From: a virus
Reading direction: 5' to 3' (one strand)
Length of the DNA: 64,000 nt
Virus record (IMG/VR): IMGVR_UViG_3300042558_005069
Span: 1-64,000 of that record
Below the pieces are notes generated by a model. The model searched no databases. It saw nothing but the letters and a program-made list of their open reading frames with translations, and was not told the origin of the DNA. The translations under genes were made by a program, and so were the position numbers. Shown in pieces: positions 1 to 60,407 of the stretch (positions within the stretch are counted from its first letter, which is position 1; each line of letters opens with the position of its first letter).

Positions 1-1
1 A

Positions 2-100
2 CCCCCCCCCAACAACCCGGGGGGGGGGGACTCTCAGTACTGGTGGGTACTGAGAGTCCCTAACTAAAGGATAATGCAGAGGGTTACATTATCCTTTAGT
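2..100. repeat. Three abutting inverted repeats: C9/G11 tracts, 14-bp stem GGGACTCTCAGTAC (27-40/47-60), 14-bp motif-A stem (63-76/87-100)
   Basis: Read directly from the sequence; lies just downstream of the stop of the minus-strand gene 109..573. Confidence 0.9.
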
Positions 101-108
101 AACAACCG

Positions 109-573
109 CTAACTAAATAGCGACTGAACTGCATCGGCTAGGGGACCACGACCTGAGTCGTCACCGCCCATAACCTCAACCTCGTTTAAGTCCTGAAATC
201 GGACAACGCTAGTTACTGAGTCGGCAGATGCACAGACAAGTAGGCGAACACGACGACGTGCTTCATGCTTGCTGGGTGCTGGCAAATCTTCATCGTTGCC
301 GTCGTAATTATCGGGCAATGGTGAAGCCCAACCAGTAGTTACCAATACGATACAGTCATACCATTTCGCTGCGAACCTCGCCCCATCGCTGGAGAGAAGA
401 TCGTAGATGTCCTCTGCTTCGGTCACTTGGTCAAATAGATGAACCTCATCGCCGTCTGTCTCTACACCAAAAAGCAACGGCTTCGCTAACTCAAAAGCCT
501 TATCTTCATTCTCACGAATGAGCAAATCGTGTATCTGTTGCTCAATGTTTTTGGAGATGTCTAGTGGTTTCAT
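109..573 (-). CDS. Hypothetical phage protein
   Basis: 154-aa ORF with GAAAGGG RBS and a motif-D promoter upstream. Confidence 0.8.
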   Translation of the reverse strand: MKPLDISKNIEQQIHDLLIRENEDKAFELAKPLLFGVETDGDEVHLFDQVTEAEDIYDLLSSDGARFAAKWYDCIVLVTTGWASPLPDNYDGNDEDLPAPSKHEARRRVRLLVCASADSVTSVVRFQDLNEVEVMGGDDSGRGPLADAVQSLFS

Positions 574-939
574 ATTTCCCTTTCATATGTGTCGTTGGTG
601 ACATTCTTACTGTACCTCATAGGGGACAGATTAGCAATTTGCATTATCCTTTAGTAGTGGGGCTATCCGCCACCGTCAAAGATTAGGGGACAACGTGACT
701 CCGCTCAAAGTCACAGCCCTCTAGATGGTGAGAAACTTCTTTAATCGGATGACATTATCGCAACGCGCCCCCGACGATGAGTTGGCTGGAGTCTGGCTTG
801 GGGCGACGGACAGAGCCCCGCTGCTCACCGCTTCAGCCGGGGCTTCGTCCCGATAAAGGTCATTTAATCGCCAACCTGTCCCCGTAGTGGTACGTTGTGA
901 ATGTCGGCAGCGGGTCGGCACATACGGAGAGGGTACGAA

Positions 940-1161
940 GTGGAAAAATTGTCTTGCTTAGATTTTGGCAGTGGTGAGTGCGTAGGCGATGTGGAACTAT
1001 CCCTCGCACAGCCTGTGCGCTATCGCACGAACGGGGAATTCATCATGTTCCCTCGTTGCGAAAAGCACTGGGACGAATACGCAGATAGGGCTCAGGCTCG
1101 CCAGGAGCGCCAGTGGGCGGCAGAACGGGCAGAGCGTGACGAATGGGCGAACTTTGAGTGA
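940..1161 (+). CDS. Hypothetical Cys-containing protein
   Basis: GTG start after GGAGAGG; motif-D promoter upstream. Confidence 0.65.
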   Translation: MEKLSCLDFGSGECVGDVELSLAQPVRYRTNGEFIMFPRCEKHWDEYADRAQARQERQWAAERAERDEWANFE

Positions 1162-1340
1162 GTCGCGCCAAACTTTGCGAACGTGCCGAGAACGTCTCTC
1201 GGCACGTTCGCTCTATTAGTTTGATCAAAGCCCCGGCCGAGGGCGAGCTCAGCGGGGCTCCAACCGCATTCGCGTCATCTAATCGCTAATCTGTCCCTGT
1301 CGTGGTATGTTGTGAATGTAGTCAAGCGAAAGGAAAAGTA

Positions 1341-1610
1341 ATGCAACAATCACATTCAAGAGTCACAGAGTTAGAGCTGGGGGCTCCCGTCGTAGTGGGG
1401 CATAGGCTCCTACTCTGGAAGCGTTCATTCTTCTACGCAAACCGTGTATCATACATTGTGTTCTGCAAAGCAGACCCCGATGAGGTTCACGGCTACGCTG
1501 TATGGCGAGTAGAGAAAAACGCTCACGGCGAATACTACGCCGAGACAGGCTACTACTTCGCCGAGTCCGATCTAGTCGAAGCCATACAGGCATACGACGC
1601 TAGAGATTAA
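1341..1610 (+). CDS. Hypothetical protein (paralog of 6663..6977)
   Basis: ATG after GAAAGGAA; shared Y-x-x-W...AExGxYF...YxAR pattern. Confidence 0.75.
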   Translation: MQQSHSRVTELELGAPVVVGHRLLLWKRSFFYANRVSYIVFCKADPDEVHGYAVWRVEKNAHGEYYAETGYYFAESDLVEAIQAYDARD

Positions 1611-1755
1611 CGAGTTACATTATCCTTTAGTGTTAGCGGGGGGTTCGCCCCCCGCTTTACATTATCCTTTAGTGTTAAACCTCTTTCTAAAGGATAATGC
1701 AGGCGGTTACATTATCCTTTAGTAAGAAAAGCACTTTAGTCGTCGCCGTGTTTCG

Positions 1756-2259
1756 TTAAACTCGCTTTGCACATACTGGACCGATACCACGAGCGACACT
1801 TTTTGCATCGGTTAGGTCTGCTCCACAGACACAGCACATAGACATTTCTACGCCTAAGGCGGTGGCTCGCTCAACGGTCATTCTGTCGCTTGCGCTTAAT
1901 CTCTGAATACTTCCACGCTCGTACTCAAAGCGCTCACTTTTTGTTGATGCTGTCGGGATAAAACGCATAGCGTACAAGTTGCCCGTTTCACGGCTCTGCT
2001 TGACCCTGTAAATACCTTCGGGGGTCTCGTACATTCCCGTAACGGTCACGGGGTCGCTTGGTGCTGACACTCTTACTTGGTCATTTGCCATAGAGCGTTC
2101 TACTGCTTCTATTTGGCGAATTGTTAATGAACCATAACGCTCAAACTTAGAGAGTAGGTCTGCATAGAACGAACTACGCCCTGAGTTGATAACGCAAAAC
2201 TTTACTACTTTGAGAGTGCGTTCGTCGGGATTGTTATTCTCAATTTCTTTGATGTCCAT
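1756..2259 (-). CDS. DUF6011-like zinc-ribbon protein
   Basis: C-terminal CxxCGxxLTDxxSxxRGIGPVC motif; RBS GAAAGGGG. Confidence 0.75.
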   Translation of the reverse strand: MDIKEIENNNPDERTLKVVKFCVINSGRSSFYADLLSKFERYGSLTIRQIEAVERSMANDQVRVSAPSDPVTVTGMYETPEGIYRVKQSRETGNLYAMRFIPTASTKSERFEYERGSIQRLSASDRMTVERATALGVEMSMCCVCGADLTDAKSVARGIGPVCAKRV

Positions 2260-2338
2260 TGTTGCCCCTTTCATGGGTGTAGTGGTTATTCATATTGTAC
2301 CTTATCGGGTACAGACTAGGGTCGTTTTACATTATCCT

Positions 2339-2536
2339 TTAGTGTTCGGGGTCGTCTGTCTGATGTTCGGGATCGTCTGTCCCTGCTTCGTAGGCGTGCG
2401 AGAGCCAGCAAAATGATGCACAGACAGGGCATACGACTACCTGCGGATAGTTCACGAGAACTCCATGCTCGTCTAAAACCTGAGAGCGTGTGAGTGGGTG
2501 TAGGGAACGGCAGTGTGAAAAATAGTAAGTCTTCAT
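2339..2536 (-). CDS. Small hypothetical protein with CxxC
   Basis: ATG at 2536; the stop codon lies inside motif A. Confidence 0.45.
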   Translation of the reverse strand: MKTYYFSHCRSLHPLTRSQVLDEHGVLVNYPQVVVCPVCASFCWLSHAYEAGTDDPEHQTDDPEH

Positions 2537-2878
2537 ATTACTTACGAGAAACCTTCGGTAAAAAGATGTCAAGGAAAAATGATTAAAACATTTCCTCAAG
2601 AACGTGACATCACGAAAGTTCCTTCCGCCACCGTCAATAATTTTGAGTCGTTCGGGGAACGCAGTAAATTTGCATTATCGCAACGCGCCCCCGACAGTGA
2701 TCCAGATTTTGCAAAAAACAGGAGCACGGACAAAGCCCCGCGTGAGACCGTTCCTGCCGGGGCTCTTTCGGATCATCCTCGAAAGCTGACTTTACGCGGC
2801 AATTCCGGGTTAGCGTCATTTAATCGCCAATCTGTACCTAGCGAGGTATGCTGCAAGCAACCCAACGAAAGGAAAGTA

Positions 2879-3223
2879 ATGAGAAAAATCAACTATGACA
2901 CGATCACCGTTTTCGACGATTGCGCCGAAGCCGATGAGTGGGAAAAAGAAAACGACAGAGAATGGATCCCTGTCGGCTGCATTGACACCGAGATTCCCTA
3001 CCGCTGGGAAGGCTCACAAGCGAAGATAGAACTGCATGCTGACCTGAATCAGTACTGGTGCGATGGCACCGTTCCTGGGTCTACTCGTGACTGTCTCATC
3101 AAGGATTGGAAAGTGGTTGTTTGGAAAGACAAGAACAACGACAACGACTACGAACTCCACTACGCAGAAAACGAACAAGACGGCAATGAAATCCTAGAGA
3201 GTCTCGCTGTTACATTATCCTAG
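2879..3223 (+). CDS. Hypothetical acidic protein
   Basis: ATG after GAAAGGAA and a motif-D promoter; the upstream ORF extension crosses regulatory repeats. Confidence 0.75.
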   Translation: MRKINYDTITVFDDCAEADEWEKENDREWIPVGCIDTEIPYRWEGSQAKIELHADLNQYWCDGTVPGSTRDCLIKDWKVVVWKDKNNDNDYELHYAENEQDGNEILESLAVTLS

Positions 3224-3586
3224 AGTATGTATTGAGGCTCGCTCCCGTGTGGGGGCGAGCCACTTACATTATCCTTTAGTGTTAGCGGCGAGCCTGACCC
3301 CGGGGGCTTTCCGCCACCGTCAAATAGTACAAGCAGGTATGACATCATTCTGAGCTCATGGCTGAAAGATGCACATTATCTGAACACGCCCCCGATGACG
3401 CAAATAAAAAGTTTGACGCGAGAAGCCAGACAAAGCCCCGCGGCTCACCGCCTTCAGCGGGGCTTCGATGCTCGAGACTTTACATTATCCTTCAGTGAAA
3501 GAAGCTCGGGAATCCCAGCGCGGGGGCGCGCTGGGATTCCCCTAACCAAAGGATAATGTGGGGAGTACATTATCCTTTGGTGTTAA

Positions 3587-4015
3587 TCATTCAATCGGGA
3601 ACGACTGAGCCTTTTTGATTAGCACGAGTAGTAGCGATTCTCTAGTGGGGACTAGATCCCTAATGAGTTCTAACGTTTCCGTGTGAAACTGATTGAATGA
3701 CTTTTCACTGAAACGCGCAACGCCTACTTGGTTGTGAAACCTTGTAGACGGGAACTGCTGCACGTTGAATGGTTCCCAAATAGTGACGGTGAAACCGGCT
3801 GCGGGCTGCCACCAAAGCAAGCGCATAGTGGCGGTGTACTGTTTGCGCTTTGGGTCGTGGGTGAACTCTAGTTCTACTTGCTCGCCTGCCATTGAATTAG
3901 TGCCGCTGTATCGCTGATCTAGTACTGGCGATCGCCACACGTATTTAATGCTACGGTCACCAATGATCGGTTGTGGGAACTTCAGGGTAATTTCTGGGTT
4001 TTGGGTTGTAGTCAT
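3587..4015 (-). CDS. Hypothetical protein, probably leaderless
   Basis: ATG 6 nt after the -10 hexamer of motif D. Confidence 0.75.
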   Translation of the reverse strand: MTTTQNPEITLKFPQPIIGDRSIKYVWRSPVLDQRYSGTNSMAGEQVELEFTHDPKRKQYTATMRLLWWQPAAGFTVTIWEPFNVQQFPSTRFHNQVGVARFSEKSFNQFHTETLELIRDLVPTRESLLLVLIKKAQSFPIE

Positions 4016-4257
4016 ACCCAAAGAGTACTAGCAAGGGTACAGATTAGTGAATGTTTGACATTATCTCAGCACGCCCCCGACAGGTGAATGAGCAAGAGCA
4101 GGTTCAAGCCCCGCGGCCAGACGCTTGTAGCGGGGCTTCGATGTGAAACATTGTCAGTCTCGGTCGGGGGCGCATTTGGATAATGTTGCTTTAATTAACA
4201 ATTTGATACTGACTAACTATAATGACAACGTAAGCAACTACTAGAAGGAGTACTACT

Positions 4258-4554
4258 GTGAACGATATTTATTGCCCAGTATGTGGCGAACCGTGGGACA
4301 ACGACACGCTACATGAATACGCCGAGGAATATGAAACAACCTATAGAGCGACCTACAAATTATTTTTTTCCGATGGTTGCGCTGTGGCGTTCAAAGAATG
4401 GGACATAGCGTGTGAACGCCCTGAGGGTGGTTCATCACGAGCCTTGTTTTCGTCATTGTTGGCAGAGATGCTAGGCGATGACGTGGACGGAATAATTAGC
4501 GAAATGCAGGACGCTGAGTTGCTTGGCTTACTGAACGACAATAGTAAAGGATAA
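4258..4554 (+). CDS. Hypothetical protein with N-terminal CPVCGEPWD zinc knuckle
   Basis: GTG after GAAGGAG. Confidence 0.75.
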   Translation: MNDIYCPVCGEPWDNDTLHEYAEEYETTYRATYKLFFSDGCAVAFKEWDIACERPEGGSSRALFSSLLAEMLGDDVDGIISEMQDAELLGLLNDNSKG

Positions 4555-4559
4555 TGTAA

Positions 4560-4871
4560 ATGCTAACAATAAACGAAAATAACCTATTATTGAACGGCGA
4601 TATTGTTGCCACGCTACCAAACACAAGCGCACGGCAAGTGCTATTACGCGCATTGCTTGAAAGCCTATCTAATCGCGATGGCGTATTTCTTGCGCTATCT
4701 CACTTAGGGGAAGCGCGTACTGCTGATATCGCTCATCTTGTTGGCATAGATAGGTCAAATGCTGGCAGGGTTCTAGACAGCCTATTGTTAGAGGGAATGG
4801 TAAAGGTAGTAAACGATTGCAATAAGGCTGGAACGGTAGGGCGACCATCTAGGGTTTGGGCGACCGTTTAA
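4560..4871 (+). CDS. Winged-helix DNA-binding protein
   Basis: TADIAHLVGIDRSNAGRVLDSL HTH and GRPSRVW wing. Confidence 0.7.
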   Translation: MLTINENNLLLNGDIVATLPNTSARQVLLRALLESLSNRDGVFLALSHLGEARTADIAHLVGIDRSNAGRVLDSLLLEGMVKVVNDCNKAGTVGRPSRVWATV

Positions 4872-4953
4872 CATTATCCTTTAGTGTGTGCGCGTCTATA
4901 TTGGCGCGCACACACTTGAACACTAAAGGATAATGTAAAGAGTACGAAAACTA

Positions 4954-5424
4954 TTATTCGCTCATCGGGTTTGGGGCAATTTCTCCGAATACAGCCTCGT
5001 ACATTTCTCGCCCTGCTTTCCACTCGTCCCACGACCCGTCAGATGAGACACGGATACACGACCCGTAAATAACCTTTGCTCTTATTAGTGAGGCGGTTAC
5101 TACTGCGTCGTATGGCTTGTAAGCCGTTTTGCAAAATGAGAAATGGTCGGGCTCATCTTTGCGCCACTCGGGTTGAGTCGGGATAGCGTCCCACCAAAAC
5201 GACTCGTGCCCATTGTCGCCGTTTTCATCGCTCACGCCATTAAATGCGAAATAACCCTCAGTACACACGGGCTGAGTGTTGGGTGCACCAAACGCGTCAC
5301 CTAGTGCAATTCCGTTTTCTTGTGCATAATCGCAAATTGCTTTTACGTCTAGTCCCAATTTGCCAAACATATAAGCCGACCCTGCGTTATTCATTGGTCG
5401 CGAAACATAGTGCGTATAGCCCAT
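4954..5424 (-). CDS. Conserved hypothetical phage protein (MGYTHY...FCKT..KPYD family)
   Basis: 156-aa ORF, AAGGAG RBS, motif-D promoter. Confidence 0.8.
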   Translation of the reverse strand: MGYTHYVSRPMNNAGSAYMFGKLGLDVKAICDYAQENGIALGDAFGAPNTQPVCTEGYFAFNGVSDENGDNGHESFWWDAIPTQPEWRKDEPDHFSFCKTAYKPYDAVVTASLIRAKVIYGSCIRVSSDGSWDEWKAGREMYEAVFGEIAPNPMSE

Positions 5425-5511
5425 TTCTTTTCTCCTTGTCTAGTAGTTATTATTAGATTACTTTACGATATTCAGACTAGCGATTAAATTACATTATCCT
5501 TTAGTGATAGT

Positions 5512-5784
5512 TCACAAGTCAGGGTTGAACCAACCCCAAGAACCATCAACGTTAATTACTACGTCCTCGGGCGCTAGGCAGTTGATTAGCGGAACAGCAG
5601 TACTATTCCAACTCCATGTAAAGTTTGGCTTTAGCGAAATATCGCAAATGGGTTTAGTTTCTCTATTGTCGCTTGTGATTAGTAACGTGGCAAGAACGAC
5701 GACAACGGAAGTCGCCAATCCCCATACTATTATTCTTACGAAAGTGCGTAGCGTGTAGTAAGCAGATGACTTTTCATTGTTCAT
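5512..5784 (-). CDS. Membrane-anchored hypothetical protein
   Basis: N-terminal hydrophobic helix; RBS and motif-D promoter. Confidence 0.7.
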   Translation of the reverse strand: MNNEKSSAYYTLRTFVRIIVWGLATSVVVVLATLLITSDNRETKPICDISLKPNFTWSWNSTAVPLINCLAPEDVVINVDGSWGWFNPDL

Positions 5785-6032
5785 ACTTTCCCCTTTTTCT
5801 AGTAGTTGTTATTAGACTACTTGACGCTATTCAGACTAGCGATTAAATGACATTATCTCAACACGCCCCCGACAAGAACAAGCGTGAGAGGTTTCAGCTT
5901 AAGCCCCGCAGGCCAGCCTGTCCCCCGGGGCTCCTACCGGATTCAGCCACAAGCGCATGACTCGAAATTGGCAAGCGCCGTTACTAAAGGATGATGCCGG
6001 ATTACATCATCCTTTAGTAACGATTGCTCCTA

Positions 6033-6452
6033 CTAGAGTCCCCGTTCCCTGCGCTGTTGTTCTGTCACAGGGCGCAACGTTGTCTCGCTGCCGGTTGGGG
6101 CATCGTGGTGAGATAGTGAGTATTCAACTCGGTCGGAATAAACCTCATAGTGCATGCGCCATTCACTTCTGACTGTCATGGCTATAAGCATTTCTTCAAC
6201 TTTGTCTACCTTGAAATGTCCGGATATATCGCCGTTCCAAAGTCGCAAATTCTCAACGGACCACCAATCAGTTTCGTTGCTGTGGCGTAGTTCCATTGTT
6301 GCCTCTCCGAACTCGGCTACTGAGTCGCTCCAGCAATAACCAAAACACTCGGATGCTTCTTTATAGTCTCCGGTGTTTTCGTCATAGGCGGTGCAAGTGC
6401 ATAGGTTGGTTATTTCTCCGGCTGTGATGAGTGTTTTTTTGGTTGTTGTCAT
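6033..6452 (-). CDS. Hypothetical protein, probably leaderless
   Basis: ATG 6 nt after the -10 hexamer of motif D. Confidence 0.75.
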   Translation of the reverse strand: MTTTKKTLITAGEITNLCTCTAYDENTGDYKEASECFGYCWSDSVAEFGEATMELRHSNETDWWSVENLRLWNGDISGHFKVDKVEEMLIAMTVRSEWRMHYEVYSDRVEYSLSHHDAPTGSETTLRPVTEQQRRERGL

Positions 6453-6662
6453 GTCTTCAATTTACCATTGAGGGTACAAACTAGCGTTTTTGCATTATCC
6501 TTTAGTAATGTTCTTTTCTCCAAATTTGCAAAACTTCTTTTTTCGTGTAATACAAGTAAAAGTGATAAGGGTAGTCATGAGTCCCATCACAGGGCAAGCG
6601 ATAAAACCCCGTTTTTGTTTTTTCTATACTTTTTAGTGTTGGTGTAATTTTTGGCATTGCGC

Positions 6663-6977
6663 TCACCAACCTCCCCGAGCCTCATAGTCTCCAACTGAAC
6701 GCTCAATTTCATTTGACAGAAAATAGTGTCCTGCCTCTGCAAGAAAACCCTCAGGGCGAGCGGAAATAATCCACGTCACGTACTTGTGATATGACCCCCT
6801 ATTGTTGGACTCACAGAGTGCAATCCAACTAGAGTAAGTATCCCCAATAACTCTCTCCGTGAGACGCTTGCAACGCAATACGGTGTGATCGGAAATGGAC
6901 ATACCTTTTGCAAGTAAGTTGAATTCTGCTTGTGTCTGCCCGTTGTGATCGTTAATTGTTTCTAATTCTGTTTGCAT
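6663..6977 (-). CDS. Hypothetical protein (paralog of 1341..1610)
   Basis: AGGAG RBS; shared C-terminal motif. Confidence 0.75.
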   Translation of the reverse strand: MQTELETINDHNGQTQAEFNLLAKGMSISDHTVLRCKRLTERVIGDTYSSWIALCESNNRGSYHKYVTWIISARPEGFLAEAGHYFLSNEIERSVGDYEARGGW

Positions 6978-7178
6978 TTTTTCTCCTAGCAATTGGTAGT
7001 AGGTGTTGTTAGTAACGTACCTTGCAGGTAACAGGCTAACTATAAATAAACATTATCGCAACACGCCCCCGATATGATCAGTCTGCGAGCCGGAGGGGAG
7101 AAGCCCCGCGTGGGGCGTGCGAAGCCGGGGCTTTAATGCTCGACAACAGCATTATCCTTGAGTGTCGGCGAGCGGCGC

Positions 7179-7511
7179 TTACCCGTGCCAGTTTTCAGAC
7201 CGCTCTATGAAGTTGCGCAAACTTTCCTCGTCGGTCATTTTTTCTTTCTCGCCTTCTTCGATAATCCAACCGAAAACGTCCTGACGTATGGCGCATCGTT
7301 CTTCTACTGCTTTCACAGCTTGAGCGGGCGTGAGTGCCTTTTCGCCAAAACCACGCAACCCGGCGTCCCATTCCCAACCGAACGACTCAACAAGATCGGC
7401 ATCGTCGTAGCACTCGTAGAGCTCTGACTCAAAAAGGTTCTGGGGGTCGCTGTAGAGCGGCATTGCTTTAATTGCGGCGACTATTTCGTCGTGTTGTGGG
7501 TGAGTTTTCAT
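7179..7511 (-). CDS. Hypothetical protein
   Basis: AAGGAG RBS, 110 aa. Confidence 0.75.
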   Translation of the reverse strand: MKTHPQHDEIVAAIKAMPLYSDPQNLFESELYECYDDADLVESFGWEWDAGLRGFGEKALTPAQAVKAVEERCAIRQDVFGWIIEEGEKEKMTDEESLRNFIERSENWHG

Positions 7512-7537
7512 TTCTTTCTCCTTTTGTTTGGGTTTGT

Positions 7538-7834
7538 TTAATAATTCATTTTGTCAAAAGCGGCGGCGGCGCCTTTAGCCATTGCGTCTTGACGAAAGGC
7601 ATAGGTCGTGTCAAACGCAACCCGCAGAACATTCCGGTGAAGTACTGAGATCTCCTCTTTTTCCAGAACGTCGTAATTTGCATTGTCGCCATACTCGCAC
7701 TCAAGCACGACTGCCACGCTGTGCTTTGTGAGCACGCTTTTAACCTTGACGAACTTAATTTCGCCATTCACTTTTGCGGCGAAAACTACTTTTTTGTTTT
7801 TGTCAATAGCGGCGCCGATGTCCCATACCTTCAT
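7538..7834 (-). CDS. Hypothetical protein
   Basis: AAGGAG RBS, motif-D promoter. Confidence 0.75.
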   Translation of the reverse strand: MKVWDIGAAIDKNKKVVFAAKVNGEIKFVKVKSVLTKHSVAVVLECEYGDNANYDVLEKEEISVLHRNVLRVAFDTTYAFRQDAMAKGAAAAFDKMNY

Positions 7835-8062
7835 GTTCTTGTCTCCTTGTGTGTGTTGTTCCTGCCGATGACTTAAAAATACCAGCAGGGGTACAGATTA
7901 GCGAAAAAGCTACCCTAATCAGGTTGAGGCGAGGCGAACAAGCCCCGGCTTCGTCCGCGCTCAGCGGGGCTCGCATGGGGTTGGTGTTCTTTTATCGCTA
8001 ATCTGTACCTGTCATGACAGAATAGGAACACGGGGGAAACGCCCTCGGGATTAGGGGAGATT

Positions 8063-8254
8063 ATGCCACTCTGGAAACAAAGAACAGAAGTAGACAAGGG
8101 CTACAAAGACATCGTGCTGAGGGAATTGGGAATAGAACAAGACCCCAAAGACTGGGAGCGCTCAAATTGGGTGATCTTTTTGTTGTGCGCTGGTTTTGAC
8201 ATAGAAACGATTACAAGGTTTCTAGCAGACGACGGTCGCTTCGTTTACGACTAA
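8063..8254 (+). CDS. Small hypothetical protein
   Basis: GGGGAG RBS, motif-D promoter, followed by a hairpin. Confidence 0.65.
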   Translation: MPLWKQRTEVDKGYKDIVLRELGIEQDPKDWERSNWVIFLLCAGFDIETITRFLADDGRFVYD

Positions 8255-8278
8255 AAAGATTATCCTAGATAGTTCGGG

Positions 8279-8312
8279 TGGCTTGCTCTCGTAGGGAGAG
8301 CAAGCCACTTTA
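8279..8312 (+). terminator. GC hairpin GTGGCTTGCTCTC/GAGAGCAAGCCAC followed by TTT and motif A
   Basis: Perfect 13-bp stem between convergent genes. Confidence 0.7.
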
Positions 8313-8378
8313 CATTATCCTTTAGTAATGGGTCGGGGTTTTCTCCCGACCCATTACGGTCTATTGTCGTAACGACCC

Positions 8379-8600
8379 CTAGTCGTACCACCTAGATGCT
8401 GGCAACTCGCACAGTAGGCAGATCGCGTTTCTTAGTTTTGCGAGAACTCGTGGGCTATGTCTTATTTTTGCAATGTCTGCACTAACTCCGTAAACTTCGC
8501 GGAGTTGGTGAACGGTGAAATCGTTACAGCAATACGAACAGATAAACCCTTCGCTGTCTTTGTCGTAAGCGACCGTCTCTAGATCTTTGTATTCATACAC
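8379..8600 (-). CDS. Small protein with two CxxC motifs
   Basis: GAGAGGA RBS; CSYC and CLLC. Confidence 0.6.
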   Translation of the reverse strand: MYEYKDLETVAYDKDSEGFICSYCCNDFTVHQLREVYGVSADIAKIRHSPRVLAKLRNAICLLCELPASRWYD

Positions 8601-8742
8601 AGTTAGTGTTTCCTCTCTTTATCCTTTAGAGGTTGCTTACCTCTGCTGATCGGACATTCAATAGAAAGAAAAACATCATCGCAATGTTCCCCCGAGTGCG
8701 TGATGCATCCACTTCACGACAAAGCCCCGCTGTAAACCGGCC

Positions 8743-9225
8743 CTAACGGGTCTCCATGCTTGGGAGAGTCTTCATCGAGCGCAGCTGATGCTTACCTAAG
8801 CGCCAAGACTCACGCCAGCCATTTGGATTGAAAAGGTTCTCGTCTTTTTTGACTTCGTACCCGTAGGCCCATCCGACAAAAAAGAAAACGTTCCCCATGA
8901 GTTGTGCAAATATATATCGCCTCTGAATGGGGTCGTTGTCTCGGATGATAAGGCCACCACGTGGGTGACTAGTTGCTCGAATCTCATTTTCTCCGTCATC
9001 GGGAATTTGGTGAAACTCATTTATGGGGTTGTGCCACAGTTTTTCATTGATGCGCGCCCAGGCTAGTTCTGCTCCAGCCCCAACTCTTTCCTGTTGGATT
9101 CTCTCGTCCATCGAGCGATCATATGTTGATGCATGGTTCAGTCCCTGTTTGCCAGACTCGGTTATGCGTAGCCTGACGGCTTTATCAACTTCTGCCCAGT
9201 CACTGTCTGTCATTGCGTATCTCAT
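8743..9225 (-). CDS. Conserved hypothetical phage protein
   Basis: GAGAELA...EIRAT...GLIIR...VGWAYG pattern; start codon uncertain. Confidence 0.65.
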   Translation of the reverse strand: MRYAMTDSDWAEVDKAVRLRITESGKQGLNHASTYDRSMDERIQQERVGAGAELAWARINEKLWHNPINEFHQIPDDGENEIRATSHPRGGLIIRDNDPIQRRYIFAQLMGNVFFFVGWAYGYEVKKDENLFNPNGWRESWRLGKHQLRSMKTLPSMETR

Positions 9226-9401
9226 CCCGTAAAGATATAGCCATTGCTCAGGTATTACAACCATTGAGGCTGTTCGTTTGAGGACTTTGTATTTAGCAGC
9301 TTCTATGCAGATACGCAAAAGCCCCCATGAGACTTTTCTCATAGGGGCTCTTGTATCTGCGATTGAACGTAGAACGTATCTATCGCAAAAACGTTTAATC
9401 C

Positions 9402-48330: not shown

Positions 48331-48645
48331 CTAAAGCCTTTGGCCACACTTTGTGCATATTTTTGCCCAAGGGTAAAAACGCGTCATATTCATAGGGTGA
48401 TCACATTCTAAAATACGCTTAGCCTCTACGTTTAGCGCATTTCTTATCCACGCTGACAGCGATATCTGCTCATGTGTTGACGCTTCTTTCCATCTATTGC
48501 GTTCAGCATCCGTTGTTCGTATTAGGACCTGCTTGTCGGAAGGATTGCCATTCTCGTTTGGGTTCCCTCGGGCAATCGTCGGTTCAAGGTTTTCAGCAAC
48601 CTTGTTCATGGCTGCAACTATGTTGTTTTCTTCGTCGCTACTCAT
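48331..48645 (-). CDS. RHH-like DNA-binding protein with C-terminal zinc knuckle
   Basis: QVLIR....ERNRWKEAS....SLSAWIR; CDH...CTKC. Confidence 0.6.
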   Translation of the reverse strand: MSSDEENNIVAAMNKVAENLEPTIARGNPNENGNPSDKQVLIRTTDAERNRWKEASTHEQISLSAWIRNALNVEAKRILECDHPMNMTRFYPWAKICTKCGQRL

Positions 48646-49270
48646 TCTCTTCCTCGGTCTCGTTGATATCTTCAACAATCTCAGCATCAATTATTTCCGA
48701 TTCGCTCTCTCCCATGAGGGCTTTTACAGTTCCTTCAGGCAAAACTCCTGCTATTGCCATTAGTTCTAGAAGTTTTCTTGCCTCTGATTCTGGATCAAAC
48801 CCGGTAGATGGCTTTATAACACCAGGCTGGCCAGCGATTGTCGCTCTAACTTGTTGATTATTATTGTCAACCTGAACATTTACATTTGTCTGCTCCATGC
48901 CCATTAGCTTACTTCTTCTGTCCATGATGGATAGGACTTGCTGAATGGCTTTCATGTCTGGTTCGACTTGAACTTCTGTCCCGTCATCCATGACCACTCG
49001 TCGATGCTGTGTCATCGGCCAAATTGCTTGTTGCAGGTTGTCAAGCCTTTCAAGCTCCAGCCTGAGAACCTCGGGGTAGGCAAGAATTGCCTCTCTGTTC
49101 ATTTTTTGGAGCTGTCGCTCAATGGACCTAGAGACGCTAGGGGCAGACATACCAAATCTTCTTGCTATCTCGGTTACAGAAGTTCCAGCTTGTCGCATCT
49201 TGAATATGCGAAGATCACGTTCGCTTAGGAATTCTTTTGTAGTTATTGGCTTAGCTTTATCGTCACTCAT
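48638..49270 (-). CDS. HTH protein, possible terminase small subunit
   Basis: MRQAGTSVTEIARRFGMS HTH; ELERLD..Q..IW; IMDRRSKLMG. Confidence 0.6.
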   Translation of the reverse strand: MSDDKAKPITTKEFLSERDLRIFKMRQAGTSVTEIARRFGMSAPSVSRSIERQLQKMNREAILAYPEVLRLELERLDNLQQAIWPMTQHRRVVMDDGTEVQVEPDMKAIQQVLSIMDRRSKLMGMEQTNVNVQVDNNNQQVRATIAGQPGVIKPSTGFDPESEARKLLELMAIAGVLPEGTVKALMGESESEIIDAEIVEDINETEEENE

Positions 49271-51107
49271 TGCTTATTTTGGCCCACTCCGTAACTTCGA
49301 AGGGGAACATCCCTCCACGTTTCATTTTAGTCGGCCAATTACGTTCGTCACGTGCACCACGAAAATGCTTAATATCGTAACCATACTCACCGACACACAT
49401 CGGATCAGGCTGAAGTGAAATTCCAAATTCAGGCCACCTAGACCAGACTGCAGACCCAAAAGGGCGCAGATCGCGAGAGCTCCCAGAGGCGCCGAGAGGG
49501 GCATGATGCTCAATCCAAAGAGCACAGCCATAAATCACCCGAATCTGATCTAAATACCTTGCCATCTCAATCGCCACCGCCTCGGAAGTCCGAGAACCAG
49601 GGTCGACAAAAGCTTTGTAAAGTGGACCAATAAGGAGCAATTCTGGCTGTATTTCCTCTAGTGCATTTTCGAGCAGGGCCCTGTCTGCCCCTCTGAGCAG
49701 ATCCATGCCGGACGGTTTTGTATAAAGATATGAATCAAGTCTTTTGCTGCCAGACCGAGTCATCGCTACGTTGGCGATCTTTCTACTTGTTCTTCTAATA
49801 ATTGTGTCTGGATTTTCCAAGTCAATAGTCAAAGTTCTTATTGGGCGCATCGGCTGGTAAGAGAATGGATGTATTCCTGCCCCTCCGAGTATGGCTACCT
49901 GCCTGGCTAACATTGTCTTGCCGACGCCCTCCGCTGCAACCACTATTACGCGTTCCCCACGCTCGATGATATGCGGAATGACCCATTCGTACGTGTCTCG
50001 ATCTGCTTCGGCAAGAAGATCATTCCACTGGATTAATCGACCTGCGTCAAGAACTGGACCCGATCCCGAAGACGAGATGATCAAACTTGATTTAGCCAAC
50101 TTGAGTTTTGAACTTAAATCTTCCCTAGATAAAAGATCCTGAAGCTTTTCGATGGCTTCATCTTCAAACGATATTTCGTGTTCAGGCTCTTCTGATTCAT
50201 TCAAAACAGCAGAATCTTGATTTTCATTGGACAGGGCTGTGTGGTCGACGAAGACGCCTTCGTCTTCGACGGGTTCCAACTCGTCTATTCCTTTCCCCGC
50301 TTCAATGTGATCTGTAATGTCTTTATGAGTGGGAGAAATCCAAACTTGAGCTTCACACCCAGCTGCTCGCAACCTACGACAAACATCAACCGCATGCTGT
50401 ATCCCAACGTCGTCGTGGTCAGCAATTATTTCTACTGTTTTAGCTCCACTGAGGGTTTCTGTATGAAGATCAAGCCAGCTTCCAGCACCATTAGGCATTG
50501 TCGTTGCAACTTGGCCTAGCGAAATGAGGGTATTTGCGTCTTTTTCTCCTTCGACTACCCATATTGTTTCGTCATTATTTTTAGCGCGAACAACTTCTGG
50601 CAAGTTATAAAGAACTTTTGGGATATCCGAAGCGCTATAAATCCAACCTCCGTTACCGTCTGGTTTCCTTTGTCTAAAAGTTTTCCGTCCAGCATCGTCG
50701 ACCAGTCGTATTTTCTGAAAGAGTAAATTGCCGTCTTCATCCGTATAGTCGTAAGACTCAACGAACTTTGTTTTAGGAGCCGCTTTCACGGCTTTTTGTT
50801 GCCTTGGAATGATGGGTGGCTTTTCCCCACTAAAACGAGAAATATCAAGAACGCTTGGCGGGTCAGATTGAGGCATCAGATCGGATACCTTGATCCCCAC
50901 TGAAGTACATATCTTTTCGACGTCGCAGGAAAGCCCCCGGTGGCACTTTATGAGTGTTCTACCATCATCCCCTTGCCCCACGGACAGCGACGGGTTGTCG
51001 TCGTCGTCTCTACAAGGGCAGCATGCCTGCCATCCCCCTGAAGTTTTTCTCACACCCTGCAATCTGTTAAGAAAGTTAAGAGTTTGCGTCGAAGGCGAGG
51101 TCGTCAT
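49263..51107 (-). CDS. Primase-helicase (Zn finger + TOPRIM + RepA/AAA_25 helicase)
   Basis: CPC..D..PSLS...KCH; VVEGEKD, DHDDVG; AAEGVGKT; RPFGS. Confidence 0.88.
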   Translation of the reverse strand: MTTSPSTQTLNFLNRLQGVRKTSGGWQACCPCRDDDDNPSLSVGQGDDGRTLIKCHRGLSCDVEKICTSVGIKVSDLMPQSDPPSVLDISRFSGEKPPIIPRQQKAVKAAPKTKFVESYDYTDEDGNLLFQKIRLVDDAGRKTFRQRKPDGNGGWIYSASDIPKVLYNLPEVVRAKNNDETIWVVEGEKDANTLISLGQVATTMPNGAGSWLDLHTETLSGAKTVEIIADHDDVGIQHAVDVCRRLRAAGCEAQVWISPTHKDITDHIEAGKGIDELEPVEDEGVFVDHTALSNENQDSAVLNESEEPEHEISFEDEAIEKLQDLLSREDLSSKLKLAKSSLIISSSGSGPVLDAGRLIQWNDLLAEADRDTYEWVIPHIIERGERVIVVAAEGVGKTMLARQVAILGGAGIHPFSYQPMRPIRTLTIDLENPDTIIRRTSRKIANVAMTRSGSKRLDSYLYTKPSGMDLLRGADRALLENALEEIQPELLLIGPLYKAFVDPGSRTSEAVAIEMARYLDQIRVIYGCALWIEHHAPLGASGSSRDLRPFGSAVWSRWPEFGISLQPDPMCVGEYGYDIKHFRGARDERNWPTKMKRGGMFPFEVTEWAKISNE

Positions 51108-51445
51108 CTCGCATCTCGCAATCTTGGAATCACTGGATCAAATGGCTCTCTTTGAACCATGAGAATATTGTGTCGTTTTCTTAATAGTTTGCGCTCACGC
51201 TCCGTGGTTCCGCCCCAGATGCCAAAAATTTCATGATACAGCGCATAATTTAAACACGGATCGATTTGCTTGCAGTCACTGCATATCGCTTTTGCTAAGT
51301 TCGTTTGCTCATTTGCTTTTCGATACTGGACAGAGAAATCTCTTCCCTTGCTTCTTTCCGCATGAGGAAACCACATTTTTACATCTTTACCGATGCAGTC
51401 GCCTCCAGTTGGGGGTGTATCGATCCGTTCGTGTGTTGGTCTCAT
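51104..51445 (-). CDS. whiB: WhiB-family Fe-S transcription factor
   Basis: C...AKAICSDC....C..YAL...FGIWGGTTERER; ATG 51445 after GGAGGGG. Confidence 0.92.
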   Translation of the reverse strand: MRPTHERIDTPPTGGDCIGKDVKMWFPHAERSKGRDFSVQYRKANEQTNLAKAICSDCKQIDPCLNYALYHEIFGIWGGTTERERKLLRKRHNILMVQREPFDPVIPRLRDAR

Positions 51446-51474
51446 TTCCCCTCCTATGGATTTAATTTTGCATA

Positions 51475-51897
51475 CTACCTTGGCGTTACGATTCTTGTCA
51501 CATCTGCAGCAGATAAATATATAACACAATTTCTAACAACCAAAGATCCAGCAACATCTTCAACCGAAAGACCGATTGCGTCAATTGGGACATTGAACCT
51601 AGCGGCCAATGTGGCACGAATTTTTTCCACTCTTAGTTCTTCATCAACAAGACTTGGTCCATCATCGTACGAGGAGAGAGGAGTTGGTTGAGGAGAAAAA
51701 AGACCCCTTAATTCTTCTTCTCGCCCATCTGTGCGCAAACACAAGACACAAGTTATCTCCTCTGTCCTGGCTGCTCTTTTTCTACTTTCTGTATGTCCAC
51801 AGTCAAGCGTGTGTAGATACTGAAATTTACCCCAGGCACCAACGCGATCGACGCTGACAACACGGCGACGTGGGGCGCGCCTGTGTTCAGTTGTCAT
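51475..51897 (-). CDS. Hypothetical protein with LDCGH...CVLC zinc motif
   Basis: 140-aa ORF. Confidence 0.65.
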   Translation of the reverse strand: MTTEHRRAPRRRVVSVDRVGAWGKFQYLHTLDCGHTESRKRAARTEEITCVLCLRTDGREEELRGLFSPQPTPLSSYDDGPSLVDEELRVEKIRATLAARFNVPIDAIGLSVEDVAGSLVVRNCVIYLSAADVTRIVTPR

Positions 51898-59021: not shown

Positions 59022-60407
59022 TTACGCAGTAGGAGCGGCGTCGAATTCAACCTTGACGAATGCTTCTGGACGCTTTACCGCAAGGGCGAGGCGTTGTTCG
59101 GCGAGAATAACAATCGCGTTGCGGATGAAGAAATCGCTGTGCTGCTCACTGATGCGGATAGATGCCTGCTCGCGGTCATAAAGCTGAGCACCGGTGCCAA
59201 ACGCGCCGACCAAAGCCATACCTTCCTGCATTGCTGGAGTATCAACAAGTGGCATTCTCCATACTCTTGGCTCGCCACCCATCGCAACAGAAACTGCGAT
59301 GAGGTACTGGCCATTGACGTCTTTTGTCAATTCGATGTCTTCCCAATCATTTGGGTGAACAACGATACCGCTTGGCTCGTAGTAAGCCAAGAAGGAGAGT
59401 GTAGCCGCACGGCGAATTGCGTCAGCTTTGGTGTCACCAGCCGTAACGTTTGCAACTCCAGCAACACCGTCAGACCAAGCGTATTCCTGGACTCCTGGGG
59501 TGTTCATCACGCCGAGCAAGTTTTCGCCCAGTCCGTCACCGTTGAGGATTTGATTGTCCTCAAGGAGGCGCAAGCCGTACATAAGCTCGTTGTCGATGAT
59601 TGAGCGAAGCTGTGGTTCATCGGCAAGAACGTTGCGGTGTGCTGCTTCCCAGTGAGCGAGTGTTCTAATTGGGGCCTGTTCACCAACGAACTGGAATGAA
59701 GATTGTGGCTTCAACCCAAATACTCCGCCAACTCTTTCAGCGACAGTAGACGCTGCGTTGTTGGTTGAGTAGGTGCTTGCAGTTACGCCTGGAGCAGAAA
59801 TCGTCGTAAAACCGATTTGACGGAAGTACTCAATAACTGCTGCTGTTGTAGTCCGAACAGGGAACAAGTCACGAACGCGCTTTGTGCGTGTTGGTGGTGT
59901 TACCATCGGATCGCGCTGAACCGTACCGAAAGAGCCGAGACGGCTGTCAGCTACGGTTGTTGAAGGCAAGCCAGAGAAGACATCCTTCACATTGTAGCCA
60001 CTCAAAGAGATGTTTGCCATCCATGGAGCTGCCATGTTTGCGCCGTTACGGCCACCAGCAAGTGCCTTGAACTCTACTGAGTCAAGGAACATCTGACCGA
60101 TGCTCTTGATCTCGCTTGAGGTCAATTGGCTGATTTCTGATGCTGCAGCTGAATAGCTTGATGCGACCGACTCTGATGCTGGCTGCGAAGACCAGCTGTC
60201 AACGTCACCCATTGTCTGCAAGTCAGAAAGGAGTGATTTAATTTCCTTAATGTCACGCATGTTCTTGTCGAATGCTGTTTTTTGTTCTGAAGAAACAACA
60301 ACTGTTCCTTCTTCTACCTTGAATGAGTCAGCAATGGCCTTATTGTCAGCCATTTTAACTCTGAGAGCTGATTGCAGCTCATCAATTCTTCCATTGTCTT
60401 GCGACAT
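59022..60407 (-). CDS. Major capsid protein, HK97 fold
   Basis: N-terminal coiled delta domain; EDNQILNGDG...NL.G, VHPNDW..I...KD.NG.Y, F.RN...ILAEQRL..AV.RPEAF. Confidence 0.93.
   Translation of the reverse strand: MSQDNGRIDELQSALRVKMADNKAIADSFKVEEGTVVVSSEQKTAFDKNMRDIKEIKSLLSDLQTMGDVDSWSSQPASESVASSYSAAASEISQLTSSEIKSIGQMFLDSVEFKALAGGRNGANMAAPWMANISLSGYNVKDVFSGLPSTTVADSRLGSFGTVQRDPMVTPPTRTKRVRDLFPVRTTTAAVIEYFRQIGFTTISAPGVTASTYSTNNAASTVAERVGGVFGLKPQSSFQFVGEQAPIRTLAHWEAAHRNVLADEPQLRSIIDNELMYGLRLLEDNQILNGDGLGENLLGVMNTPGVQEYAWSDGVAGVANVTAGDTKADAIRRAATLSFLAYYEPSGIVVHPNDWEDIELTKDVNGQYLIAVSVAMGGEPRVWRMPLVDTPAMQEGMALVGAFGTGAQLYDREQASIRISEQHSDFFIRNAIVILAEQRLALAVKRPEAFVKVEFDAAPTA

Follow-up and report, generated by a model that had tools for sequence, protein, structure and literature searches.

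A conserved palindrome between early-gene units in a family of uncultured lake phages, tentatively read as an open-loop hairpin that insulates them

The nine palindromes at the start of this viral contig are, judged from sequence comparison, copies of a boundary element that lies between early-gene units, just upstream of promoters, in a large family of uncultured lake phages whose hosts are probably Actinobacteria. The explanation that we favor, at somewhat below an even chance, is that the element would be an open-loop hairpin with a sequence-specific stem, insulating neighboring early transcription units as part of a terminator and promoter cassette that resembles PeSL (promoter-early stem-loop) cassettes. 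Its main rival is a protein site on duplex DNA.

A motif scan of the window, the whole 64,000-nt stretch of DNA analyzed here, found eight exact copies of AGCCCCG-N17-CGGGGCT (starting at 814, 1229, 2734, 3434, 4107, 5902, 7102 and 7941) and one at 8723 with a single mismatch (right arm CGGGTCT), all within 814–8753. Shuffled sequences gave 0.00 exact matches, and 0.08 when two mismatches were allowed. All nine spacers are 17 nt long, each has a different sequence, and their self-complementarity does not exceed that of shuffled spacers. There is no U-tract 3′ of the palindromes, whose flanks hold short T/C-rich stretches only (TTCG, TCC or TTTG). These results bear out the earlier note's description of nine palindromes with near-invariant arms and no U-tract, as well as its placing of every copy in the first 8.8 kb, since scanning the other 95 kb of the 104,099-base record added none. 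Base 1 of the window is a contig end, not a genome end. The palindromes (C) and their companion elements have the following positions.

753–774, plus strand: box B; read on the opposite strand, a G-run and then GATAAT
2673–2694, 3374–3395, 4059–4080, 5851–5872 and 7051–7072, plus strand: further copies of box B
4164–4185, minus strand: further copy of box B
near 8672–8696: degenerate copy of box B
868–896, plus strand: early promoter D, TCGCYA-N17-TAnnnT with an extended −10 TGG
1283–1311 and 2824–2852, plus strand: further copies of promoter D
609–637, 4022–4050, 7014–7042 and 7876–7904, minus strand: further copies of promoter D
814–844, no strand: palindrome copy 1, between divergent genes 109–573 (minus) and 901–1161 (plus); box B 36 nt to the left, plus-strand promoter D to the right
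1229–1259, no strand: palindrome copy 2, between tandem plus-strand genes, followed by a plus-strand promoter D and preceded by a separate terminator-like hairpin (1177–1211)
2734–2764, no strand: palindrome copy 3, between divergent genes, with box B 36 nt to its left
3434–3464, no strand: palindrome copy 4, between convergent genes, with box B 36 nt to its left
4107–4137, no strand: palindrome copy 5, at the center of a symmetric B-C-B′ unit with divergent promoters on either side
5902–5932, no strand: palindrome copy 6, between tandem minus-strand genes; in the minus sense, upstream of box B and a minus-strand promoter D
7102–7132, no strand: palindrome copy 7, between tandem minus-strand genes; in the minus sense, upstream of box B and promoter D at 7014–7042
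7941–7971, no strand: palindrome copy 8, between divergent promoters D (minus strand, 7876–7904; plus strand, from 7993)
8723–8753, no strand: palindrome copy 9, degenerate; CGGGTCT leaves an unpaired C/T; overlaps the 3′ end of ORF 8743–9342 (minus)
9316–9350, no strand: long hairpin of the ordinary kind; stem C-like (AGCCCCC..AGGGGCT), loop short, flanked on both sides by A/T tracts

The last of these shows a C-type stem serving as a conventional terminator-like hairpin. Four of the nine palindromes separate divergent genes and are entered by no known transcript, and only the copy at 8723 overlaps a stop codon.

The palindrome belongs to early-gene promoter modules, as had been proposed, and its arms are conserved by sequence. 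Box B (CATTATCnnARCRCGCCCCCGA) is found 24–36 nt upstream of seven of the nine palindromes, and the spacer of promoter D contains a conserved CTGTMCC box. The reported promoter motif, (A/T)ATCGCYAAYCTGTMCC, does begin 21 nt past the palindrome ends at 844, 1259 and 7971, and the −35-like hexamer TCGCYA begins after 23 nt; this exact placement holds for these three copies in the window, and in the remaining copies box B intervenes. The cassette order, palindrome and then promoter D, is the same in this phage and its relatives. Throughout the family, the distance from an arm to the next conserved box is 30±2 nt whatever the loop length (30±2 nt to the G-run, 30–32 nt to the CTGTMCC box), the intervening sequence is unconserved, and about 10 solo arms keep the same spacing. 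The palindrome stands 30–71 nt from the core promoter, with no helical phasing, and the stem-loop lies 23–100 nt upstream of the −35. Besides the G-run/GATAAY box, the cassette has two extra conserved boxes, A and E, and where cassettes stand back to back a single shared palindrome sits between them.

We then compared the element across relatives. Identical arms are present in 13 of 17 large relatives, seven of which carry 5–16 copies, and further contigs carry up to 16 copies each; one further contig, at 62% GC, has an N17 spacer in 15 of 16 copies. The copies cluster in early-gene arrays at the same operon boundaries, which is also where they are found in a syntenic array shared by six genomes. 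One gene family has an upstream palindrome in nine of nine genomes, and in other families the palindrome lies 16–55 nt past the stop codon (five of five and six of seven genomes). By reading of the sequence, the palindrome is the sole hairpin between operons at some syntenic boundaries. Positions at orthologous boundaries are kept across phages whose major capsid proteins are 70–83% identical, and the arms are invariant over 103 copies in nine genomes. The element is lineage-restricted: several relatives have lost the palindrome yet keep the other boxes, and no substitute palindrome was found in the relatives that lack it.

The spacer behaves differently from the arms. Across the 103 copies, it measures 16–20 nt in 87% (16 nt in 12 copies, 17 nt in 40, 18 nt in 19, 19 nt in 16 and 20 nt in 3) and 24–29 nt in 12%. 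The earlier note read an invariant 17-nt spacer as fitting a dimeric protein or recombinase site better than a terminator; the length is indeed constant in this phage, but relatives have spacers of 15–20 and 24–29 nt, even inside one genome, a variation that the note itself had named as telling against its reading. Single genomes mix lengths of 16, 18, 19, 20, 24 and 25 nt (G006 and G009; G002 is also mixed), and the preferred length differs by phage, 17 nt here and 18 or 19/16 nt elsewhere, so that an invariant 17 nt is specific to this phage. Variable spacers, even within one genome, argue against a rigid dimer operator. A dimeric operator with fixed half-site spacing was rejected on the same ground.

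A looser protein site on duplex DNA is harder to dismiss, although on balance we consider it unlikely. Each CGGGGCT arm would then be a half-site for a conserved core phage regulator or a host factor, and the bound protein would organize the region upstream of the early promoter as an activator, a shut-off repressor or an insulating roadblock. The arm-to-box spacing, fixed while the sequence between varies and maintained even by solo arms, is more easily explained by proteins on duplex DNA. The exact 23 nt to the −35 in three copies would put the near arm at about −63, and some copies lie between divergent promoters. Invariant arms, relatives without a substitute palindrome and a spacer of phage-specific length but free sequence also suit a duplex site; the last is typical of a DNA spacer as well and counts against a hairpin. 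Candidate regulators (a GerE/sigma-region-4-like HTH at 48638–49270, an RHH at 48331–48690 and WhiB) belong to the core set found in 20 of 20 relatives. However, because the core HTH and RHH also occur in palindrome-free phages, their co-occurrence is uninformative, and the wHTH at 4560–4871, formerly put forward as the local binder, is missing from 19 of 20 relatives, though most carry the palindrome. The geometry is also unfavorable: a rigid dimer would not tolerate the mixed spacers of G006 and G009, half-sites whose centers are 24 bp apart face different sides of the helix, and the distance to the core promoter is not phased.

The positions just inside the arms bear on the choice between the two. 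The first inner pair is complementary in 15 of 103 copies, compared with 34±4 expected, and the second in 19 copies, compared with 31 expected; in a phage with 8-bp arms, the depletion moves one step inward. Loops are slightly less structured than shuffled loops (z ~ +0.3). Structure is absent from the spacers, and bases that could pair immediately inside the arms are actively avoided. Positions 17 nt apart meet only in a folded strand, and this depletion therefore favors a folded hairpin over duplex half-sites, for which complementarity inside the arms would be meaningless. The variable spacers argue against a rigid dimer and leave a DNA-bound protein as a rival.

The same statistics bear on whether the palindrome has any function at all. 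It could be a functionless stem, derived from a terminator, that is carried along with the promoter cassette and homogenized by recombination; its lineage-restricted occurrence, its loss from relatives that retain the other boxes, and the presence of the same stem type in the ordinary hairpin at 9316–9350 and in fully paired variants (G016) would all suit such a remnant or selfish repeat. We give this possibility little weight, as positions at orthologous boundaries are kept across the diverged capsid lineages and in the 62%-GC contig, the arms are perfectly preserved amid diverging surroundings, and neither the range of loop lengths nor the avoidance of inner pairing is random.

Under the favored hairpin reading, the cassette in gene direction consists of the palindrome, about 30 nt, the G-run/GATAAY box, a sigma-A-type promoter with an extended −10 and the gene, and the ancestral layout of the family would have palindromes as punctuation between tandem early operons. 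The element would most likely act once transcribed, when it would fold into a 7–10 bp GC-clamped stem with an open, unstructured loop of 16–20 nt. Such a hairpin could halt or attenuate read-through in either direction, cap RNA 3′ ends, or both, so that every early unit would be insulated from its neighbors. Because the stem does not co-vary and no U-tract is present, we infer a trans-acting factor that would read the stem by its sequence, either a conserved phage protein or a part of the host transcription machinery, and would assist or regulate the transcription block. Several observations count in favor of the hairpin: the shared clusters, the orthologous boundaries and the boundaries where it is the sole hairpin; the inner-pair depletion, the weakly structured loops and the tolerance of 16–20 nt; and the three AGTCCCG..CGGGGCT copies of G016, which combine a G.U-type pair with fully paired spacers, along with an excess of G.U in the flanking pairs of G003 (nine G.U vs four A.C).

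Other observations count against it. A 16–20 nt loop without a U-tract is one, and mycobacterial RNA polymerase reportedly requires a U-tract (PMC3993855). The four copies between divergent genes are another, and G.T and A.C mismatches occur equally often across the outer flanks as a whole. Neighboring hairpins flanked by motif A co-vary and have the look of the ordinary terminators; for termination, the palindrome may therefore be superfluous.

The arrangement of two hexamers around a 17-nt spacer also recalls a promoter, and the element could be a bidirectional site of the −35/−10 type or a hairpin promoter that is extruded; either a phage protein resembling sigma region 4 or an injected polymerase would recognize it. 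Its spacer distribution, peaking at 17 nt, does resemble promoter spacer statistics; the element heads every early unit and centers divergent pairs; a core protein has a weak sigma-70 region 4/Mor-like HTH; and the phage packages giant multi-domain proteins with unassigned regions. We nevertheless regard this as very improbable. For sigma-70-type recognition, a ‘−10’ without A/T has no known precedent; each palindrome is followed by ordinary sigma-A-like promoters; and one class of copies has 24–29 nt spacers. The giant 4564-aa protein gave no RNA polymerase signal (a PF00940 search was left aside, as its control was silent).

The note's second proposal, a recombination site, fared worse. Here the palindrome would be a favored crossover point, site-specific or driven by microhomology, that moves or inverts early modules. 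Compared with six syntenic relatives, this phage has a rearranged early gene order, and several of the breakpoints fall at palindrome-bearing boundaries; for example, families 16 and 19 are neighbors in relatives and are mutually inverted here, with the copy at 1229 between them. PeSL cassettes are documented as mediating such shuffling (PMC2839356), and the single palindrome shared by back-to-back cassettes would fit. On the suggested check for inversions, contigs of four lake populations, which cannot reveal rare forms, contain no joints, inversions or strand changes at any palindrome. The edges of boxes A, B, D and E do show joints; these have short matches on their sides and are unreliable. 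Palindromes are stably inherited at orthologous boundaries, and 7-bp arms are short for homologous exchange. No recombinase was found beside the region; in a Pfam scan of 20 early ORFs, 18 had no match and none matched a recombinase family, and a search of the record found no Y1 transposase. Shuffling would be a by-product of the element's conservation, not its reason, and we assign a recombination site only a small probability. A site-specific recombination site (invertase or integrase core, attC, REP/RAYT) was likewise rejected among the families searched.

Among known systems, N4-type hairpin promoters serve a virion RNA polymerase and have a 5–7 bp stem and a 3-nt loop; this class was rejected on the 16–20 nt loops and the lack of a polymerase signal. 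The operator sites of phi29 p4 are 6-bp repeats about 15 bp apart, and the actinophage phiC31 has conserved inverted repeats in intergenic regions. Like the element, these are short inverted repeats with a long non-conserved spacer, in several copies around early promoters. Their spacing is fixed and their cognate protein is known, whereas here the spacer varies within genomes, the pairing status inside the arms is under selection, and cognate proteins are candidates only.

Intrinsic (Rho-independent) terminators share the GC-rich stem, the intergenic position between transcription units and a purine-rich upstream and pyrimidine-rich downstream flank, which is symmetric here. They differ in their loop (3–8 nt vs 16–20 nt here), in their 7–9 nt U-tract, absent here, and in a stem that co-varies where ours is invariant. 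A standard consensus scan did not call the palindromes, and the earlier judgment that they are not canonical intrinsic terminators stands. As for described RNA families, Rfam 15 covariance models returned only three tRNAs at gathering score and nothing over a palindrome at E ≤ 5.

Two precedents count in favor of the hairpin. The TRIT motif of mycobacteria is palindromic, terminator-like, sequence-conserved and bidirectional (Gardner et al. 2011, PMC3152330). It shares with our element the actinobacterial context, many hairpin copies conserved in sequence and structure, and bidirectionality through palindromy at gene ends. TRIT is chromosomal, confined to Mycobacterium and centered about 8 nt before stop codons, whereas our element is carried by phages, is linked to promoter cassettes and has a loop that is both large and open.

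The second precedent is the PeSL cassette of T4-type phages, whose sequence-conserved stems terminate transcription (Arbiol et al. 2010, PMC2839356; Comeau et al. 2014, PMC4122927). The differences are several: our phages belong to an unrelated lineage (the capsid protein is nearest to actinophages, and WhiB is carried); the loop is 16–20 nt, kept open and of phage-specific preferred length; the stem-loop is set 23–100 nt upstream of the −35, whereas PeSL has it within or adjoining the promoter; the G-run/GATAAY, A and E boxes are additional; and one identical stem recurs across many divergent genomes. Terminator activity and mini-circles are features of PeSL; in the present element, termination is a predicted activity. 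The PeSL authors also asked if a protein might target the conserved GGGG...CCCC stem (PMC2839356; PMC4122927). In its overall design, the element resembles these stem-loop-plus-promoter cassettes: in both, one intergenic unit combines a G/C stem-loop of conserved sequence with a strong early promoter of host type; both recur in many copies where the genome is plastic and the early genes are small and mostly orphans; and both flank single genes or small operons whose order is shuffled among relatives.

A scan of the window for AGCCCCG-N17-CGGGGCT finds eight exact copies, starting at 814, 1229, 2734, 3434, 4107, 5902, 7102 and 7941, and a ninth at 8723 with one mismatch (right arm CGGGTCT); dinucleotide shuffles of the window contain no exact copies. 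Spacer sequences vary from copy to copy and are no more prone to folding than shuffled ones. A pattern scan of the remainder of the 104,099-base record found no further copy, which confines the palindromes to the first 8.8 kb. Reading their flanks, we found no U-tract 3' of the window palindromes, and a conserved promoter motif starts 21 nt past the palindrome ends at 844, 1259 and 7971. The earlier note's description of the pattern, made from the sequence alone, was accurate. The -35-like hexamer TCGCYA starts 23 nt past the same three ends.

The first 8.8 kb form an array of small genes on both strands, where 18 of 20 ORFs have no Pfam match, and five motifs recur within it.

Repeated boxes of the early region
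Box A: ACATTATCCTTTAGT; 23 copies, window 63-8630
Box B: CATTATCnnARCRCGCCCCCGA; 7 copies and 1 inverted copy
Box C: the palindrome, AGCCCCG-N17-CGGGGCT
Box D: TCGCYA-N17-TAnnnT, a sigma-A/sigma-70-like promoter; its -10 is extended, and its spacer contains a conserved CTGTMCC box
Box E: TTGACGGTGGCGGAA in minus sense (TTGACGGTGGYGGAAGA); window ~668-685, 2628-2645 and 3310-3325

Along the gene that it serves, a cassette runs from C through about 30 nt to B (G-run, then GATAAT), D, the ribosome site and the gene. Box B lies 24-36 nt left of seven of the nine window palindromes, and a symmetric B-C-B' unit with divergent promoters on either side has copy 4107 at its centre. By gene context, four copies are divergent, four tandem and one convergent. 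Early promoters with CTGTMCC in the spacer lie at 609-637, 868-896, 1283-1311, 2824-2852, 4022-4050, 7014-7042 and 7876-7904; together with the GGTAC of the extended -10 region, this box makes an inverted repeat, CTGTACC..GGTACAG, which may be an operator overlapping the -10. The early ORF at 1756-2274(-) has a C-terminal DUF6011 domain (E 1e-10), and its family occurs in the early regions of seven relatives. The contig itself opens with C10 and G11 homopolymers and a hairpin (window 1-60); because other lake-run contigs extend left of about base 20 into module sequence, base 1 is an assembly end and not a genome end.

The region also contains hairpins of other kinds. Those adjoining box A have short loops, variable stems and T-rich tails (for example 1177-1211, 3508-3541 and 8325-8357), and look like ordinary terminators. 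Motif A occurs in 20-33 copies per early region (the window and the relatives' stretches L296, L297 and L351), where it flanks hairpins whose stems differ between copies and which are probably real terminators; its arrangement is reminiscent of stoperator-type sites. A long, conventional hairpin at 9316-9350 has a stem, AGCCCCC..AGGGGCT, like that of the palindrome, with a 4-nt loop and flanking A- and T-tracts, which suggests that the palindrome's arms derive from a terminator stem. Box E, the most widely conserved box of the early region, occurs even in relatives without the palindrome (L293, L294 and L295), with 5-9 copies in each, all on a single strand; it often includes the TGA stop of one gene and precedes the next, and might act as a promoter element or couple genes in the manner of a Shine-Dalgarno signal.

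The palindrome is widespread among related phages. A scan of IMG/VR with the exact pattern returned other contigs with several copies, and relatives of the major capsid protein (59022-60407), 68-83% identical to it, number more than 320 and come from contigs as long as 170 kb. AGCCCCG..CGGGGCT occurs in 13 of 17 large relatives, seven of them with 5-16 copies within one 10-20 kb stretch, and the reversed control pattern has no matches. The palindrome-rich stretches are early-gene arrays, with many gene families in common with the window. Most capsid-anchored partial contigs are missing the early region; in relatives lacking the element, no substitute palindrome was found. Across relatives, boxes A and B have phage-specific versions, such as the GATAA-core forms TAGATAACT, TAGATAAGT and AAAGATAGC of motif A in place of AGGATAATG, and C and E are unchanged. 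Several units in the related genomes G003 (stretches L208/L209) and G014 (L296) have an imperfect conserved hairpin after box B, CTGGCGCACCC...GGGYTTGCCCAC, which requires G.U pairs on the gene strand and may be a leader RNA structure. In G002 (L210, 5000-13400), cGAAC-N4-GTTCg boxes stand 5-10 nt upstream of many palindromes and resemble the LexA (Cheo/SOS) box of Gram-positive and actinobacterial hosts.

A near-identity search of GenBank phages gave no match. The nearest cultured phages by capsid protein are Gordonia GMA6, Gordonia ChisanaKitsune and Brevibacterium Cantare (45-54% identity), each with one chance-level palindrome copy. Because of this affinity, and because the phage encodes a WhiB gene, the host is very probably an actinobacterium; a search among bacterial genomes with the phage ribonucleotide reductase found no relative.

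The copies keep their positions relative to genes. Early gene order is maintained in G006, G009, G013 and G014, with G001 and G003 in the opposite orientation, and palindromes (C) fall at the same boundaries between blocks of gene families, for example 1 /C/ 6-15-12-10-9-2 /C/ 24.. /C/ 3-5 /C/ 4 /C/ 7 /C/ 0 /C/ 8-22 /C/ 17 /C/ 16-19 /C/ 21. The family of the window gene at 109-573 has a palindrome 150-242 nt upstream in 9/9 genomes, another family has one upstream in 8/8, and two more have one 16-55 nt past the stop codon (5/5 and 6/7 genomes). By reading, the palindrome is the sole hairpin at some orthologous boundaries. From these shared positions, we infer that ancestrally the palindrome punctuated tandem early operons, standing immediately before the promoter cassette that follows. 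In the window phage this order has been rearranged: families 16 and 19, for example, which are adjacent and co-directional in other genomes, here point in opposite directions on either side of copy 1229, and it is through rearrangement of the early region that four window copies now lie between divergent genes.

We then compiled statistics on 103 copies from nine genomes, leaving out G010 (12 copies). The constancy of GCCCCG/CGGGGC in this set is by construction, since the search required those arms; the A and T that flank those arms occur in 100 of the 103 copies, and near-variants of the arms are rare, few of them compensated. Spacers are 12 nt (1 copy, the shortest), 16 nt (12 copies), 17 nt (40), 18 nt (19), 19 nt (16), 20 nt (3) and 24-29 nt (12) long. 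Each phage has its preference: 17 nt in the window phage (9/9), G001, G003, G014 and a 62%-GC contig (15/16), 18 nt in G013, and 19 and 16 nt in G006 and G009; in the sole contig with the same version of box A as the window phage, spacers measure 15, 16 and 18 nt. Other genomes use N17 at about 34%, so that nine of nine would arise by chance with a probability of about 6e-5 (our own arithmetic), and the uniform 17 is consequently a real but phage-specific preference. The earlier note's invariant 17-nt spacer thus describes the window phage and not its relatives, and the 12-29 nt range across the 103 copies is the kind of variation that the note had named as refuting its reading as a protein or recombinase site.

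The base pairs just inside the arms carry a signal of their own. The first is Watson-Crick in 15/103 copies (34±4 expected) and C.C or G.G in 54/103, and the second is Watson-Crick in 19/103 (31 expected). Among 34 further distinct copies, mostly from a phage with 8-bp arms, the depletion moves one step inward (4 versus 9.4 and 3 versus 8.6). Selection on pairing between bases 15-17 nt apart is sensible only when the strand folds; the counts suggest that the loop must stay open and the end of the stem must stay defined. The spacers themselves show no self-complementarity (mean z +0.3 against shuffles) and have a weak central YCGG.

Proteins bound to duplex DNA would more readily explain a second set of measurements. 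The G-run of box B begins 30±2 nt outward from the arm on 79 of 206 sides (against 2.4% of random windows), at a distance uncorrelated with loop length, and where box B is absent the CTGTMCC of promoter D lies 30-32 nt from the arm. The 30-nt linker is unconserved and weakly structured (z -0.58, no strand bias), the two linkers of the symmetric B-C-B' unit show no complementarity, and about ten solo arms keep the same 30-nt spacing. Of two surviving readings, a protein site on duplex DNA is favored by the invariant arms, the constant 30-nt distance to the next box, the solo arms and a preferred spacer length per phage with free spacer sequence; we give it something under one chance in three, somewhat below a hairpin.

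Several other readings were tried and rejected. As guides, the spacers match the genome no more than shuffled spacers do; as a tRNA-like minihelix (7 + 17 + 7), the spacer forms no T-arm. A single long hairpin across B-C-B' fails because the B boxes alone mirror each other, and stem extension via a single bulge shows no enrichment past one C-G pair. Small ORFs across B and C (725-856 and 3358-3498) vary by copy in their frame relative to the palindrome, and one contains a stop codon. Box B fits an extended -10 promoter (TGnGATAAT) in the window phage alone and not in the relatives' versions. An ECF-type GGAAC..GTT reading of the loops and a G-quadruplex reading are inconsistent among copies.

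Four encoded proteins were considered as binders.

Putative DNA-binding proteins of the window
4560-4871: wHTH, TrmB/MarR-like; in 1/20 relatives
48331-48690(-): RHH protein, NikA-like; core gene, 20/20 relatives
48638-49270(-): HTH protein, GerE/sigma-70-region-4/Mor-like, 210 aa; core gene, 20/20 relatives
51104-51529(-): WhiB; core gene

The wHTH had been the earlier note's proposed binder, and its presence in a single relative of 20 means that it is not the palindrome's conserved partner. The RHH, HTH and WhiB genes adjoin the primase gene, and their products are candidate readers of the conserved boxes; relatives without palindromes also encode the RHH and HTH proteins, so presence or absence does not discriminate. 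The 4564-aa protein gave no RNA polymerase signal; a search for T7-like RNA polymerases carries no weight here, its control being silent.

Recombination at the palindromes, also proposed earlier, finds no support in the lake contigs. Contigs from four lake metagenomes, spanning several years, contain the window's early region (96-100% of sampled words) and show no joint or inversion at any palindrome, although contigs are blind to rare forms; the joints seen coincide with the borders of other boxes, and the matching sequence on their sides is short. These contigs hold single-base variants at 7952, within the spacer of copy 7941, and at 3429, just upstream of copy 3434. The record has no Y1 transposase. 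To the palindrome as a recombination linker, as a promoter-like site or as a functionless remnant we assign still smaller shares of probability.

The palindrome is neither an ordinary intrinsic terminator nor a rigid dimer operator; its anatomy, conservation, positions and statistics are observed. The earlier preference for a dimeric-protein or recombinase site over a terminator was right in its second half, and the varying spacer lengths argue against a rigid dimer. Our leading interpretation, which we hold tentatively and at somewhat less than an even chance, is a hairpin insulator with a sequence-specific helper factor: transcription would pass through the palindrome, the transcript's hairpin would block read-through, and the helper factor would assist it. 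In favor of the hairpin are its place at operon boundaries, loops that may be 16 to 20 nt long and are open, the scarcity of pairing immediately inside the arms, variants of G.U type in G016 whose spacers are fully paired, the nine G.U versus four A.C in the flanks of G003, and the precedents of PeSL stems (PMC2839356) and TRIT (PMC3152330). A more ambitious proposal, to which we give a low probability, is a dedicated recognition module, an invariant stem with an open loop of phage-specific length, read by a putative conserved factor of the phage family or by the actinobacterial transcription machinery; it might act as a switchable insulator (regulated termination/anti-termination), or even be where a non-canonical polymerase or holoenzyme starts transcription in both directions.

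These phages are a large, abundant and uncultured lake family (more than 320 related contigs, genomes of 150-170 kb) whose early host-takeover region follows a conserved five-box grammar, with the palindrome its most invariant box. It offers a test case for how transcription is ended or insulated in actinobacteria and their phages when no U-tract is present, and for whether sequence-conserved hairpins such as TRIT and the PeSL stems act via a bound factor; as a practical marker, it can also help to locate early regions and the limits of operons in phage genomes from metagenomes. If it were such a recognition module, it would represent a new regulatory grammar of early gene expression in very abundant lake phages, and interest would be high if a dedicated factor or a non-canonical mechanism of transcription came to light.

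By function and architecture, and not by descent, the nearest known elements are the PeSL (promoter-early stem-loop) cassettes of T4-type phages, whose stems terminate transcription in reporter assays (PMC2839356); the other closest is the TRIT motif, a palindromic terminator-like motif of mycobacteria (PMC3152330). In contrast to both, the palindrome has a large, deliberately open loop of phage-specific length, its arms are identical in many divergent genomes from 44% to 62% GC, and its distance to further boxes is fixed; it has no match among Rfam families.
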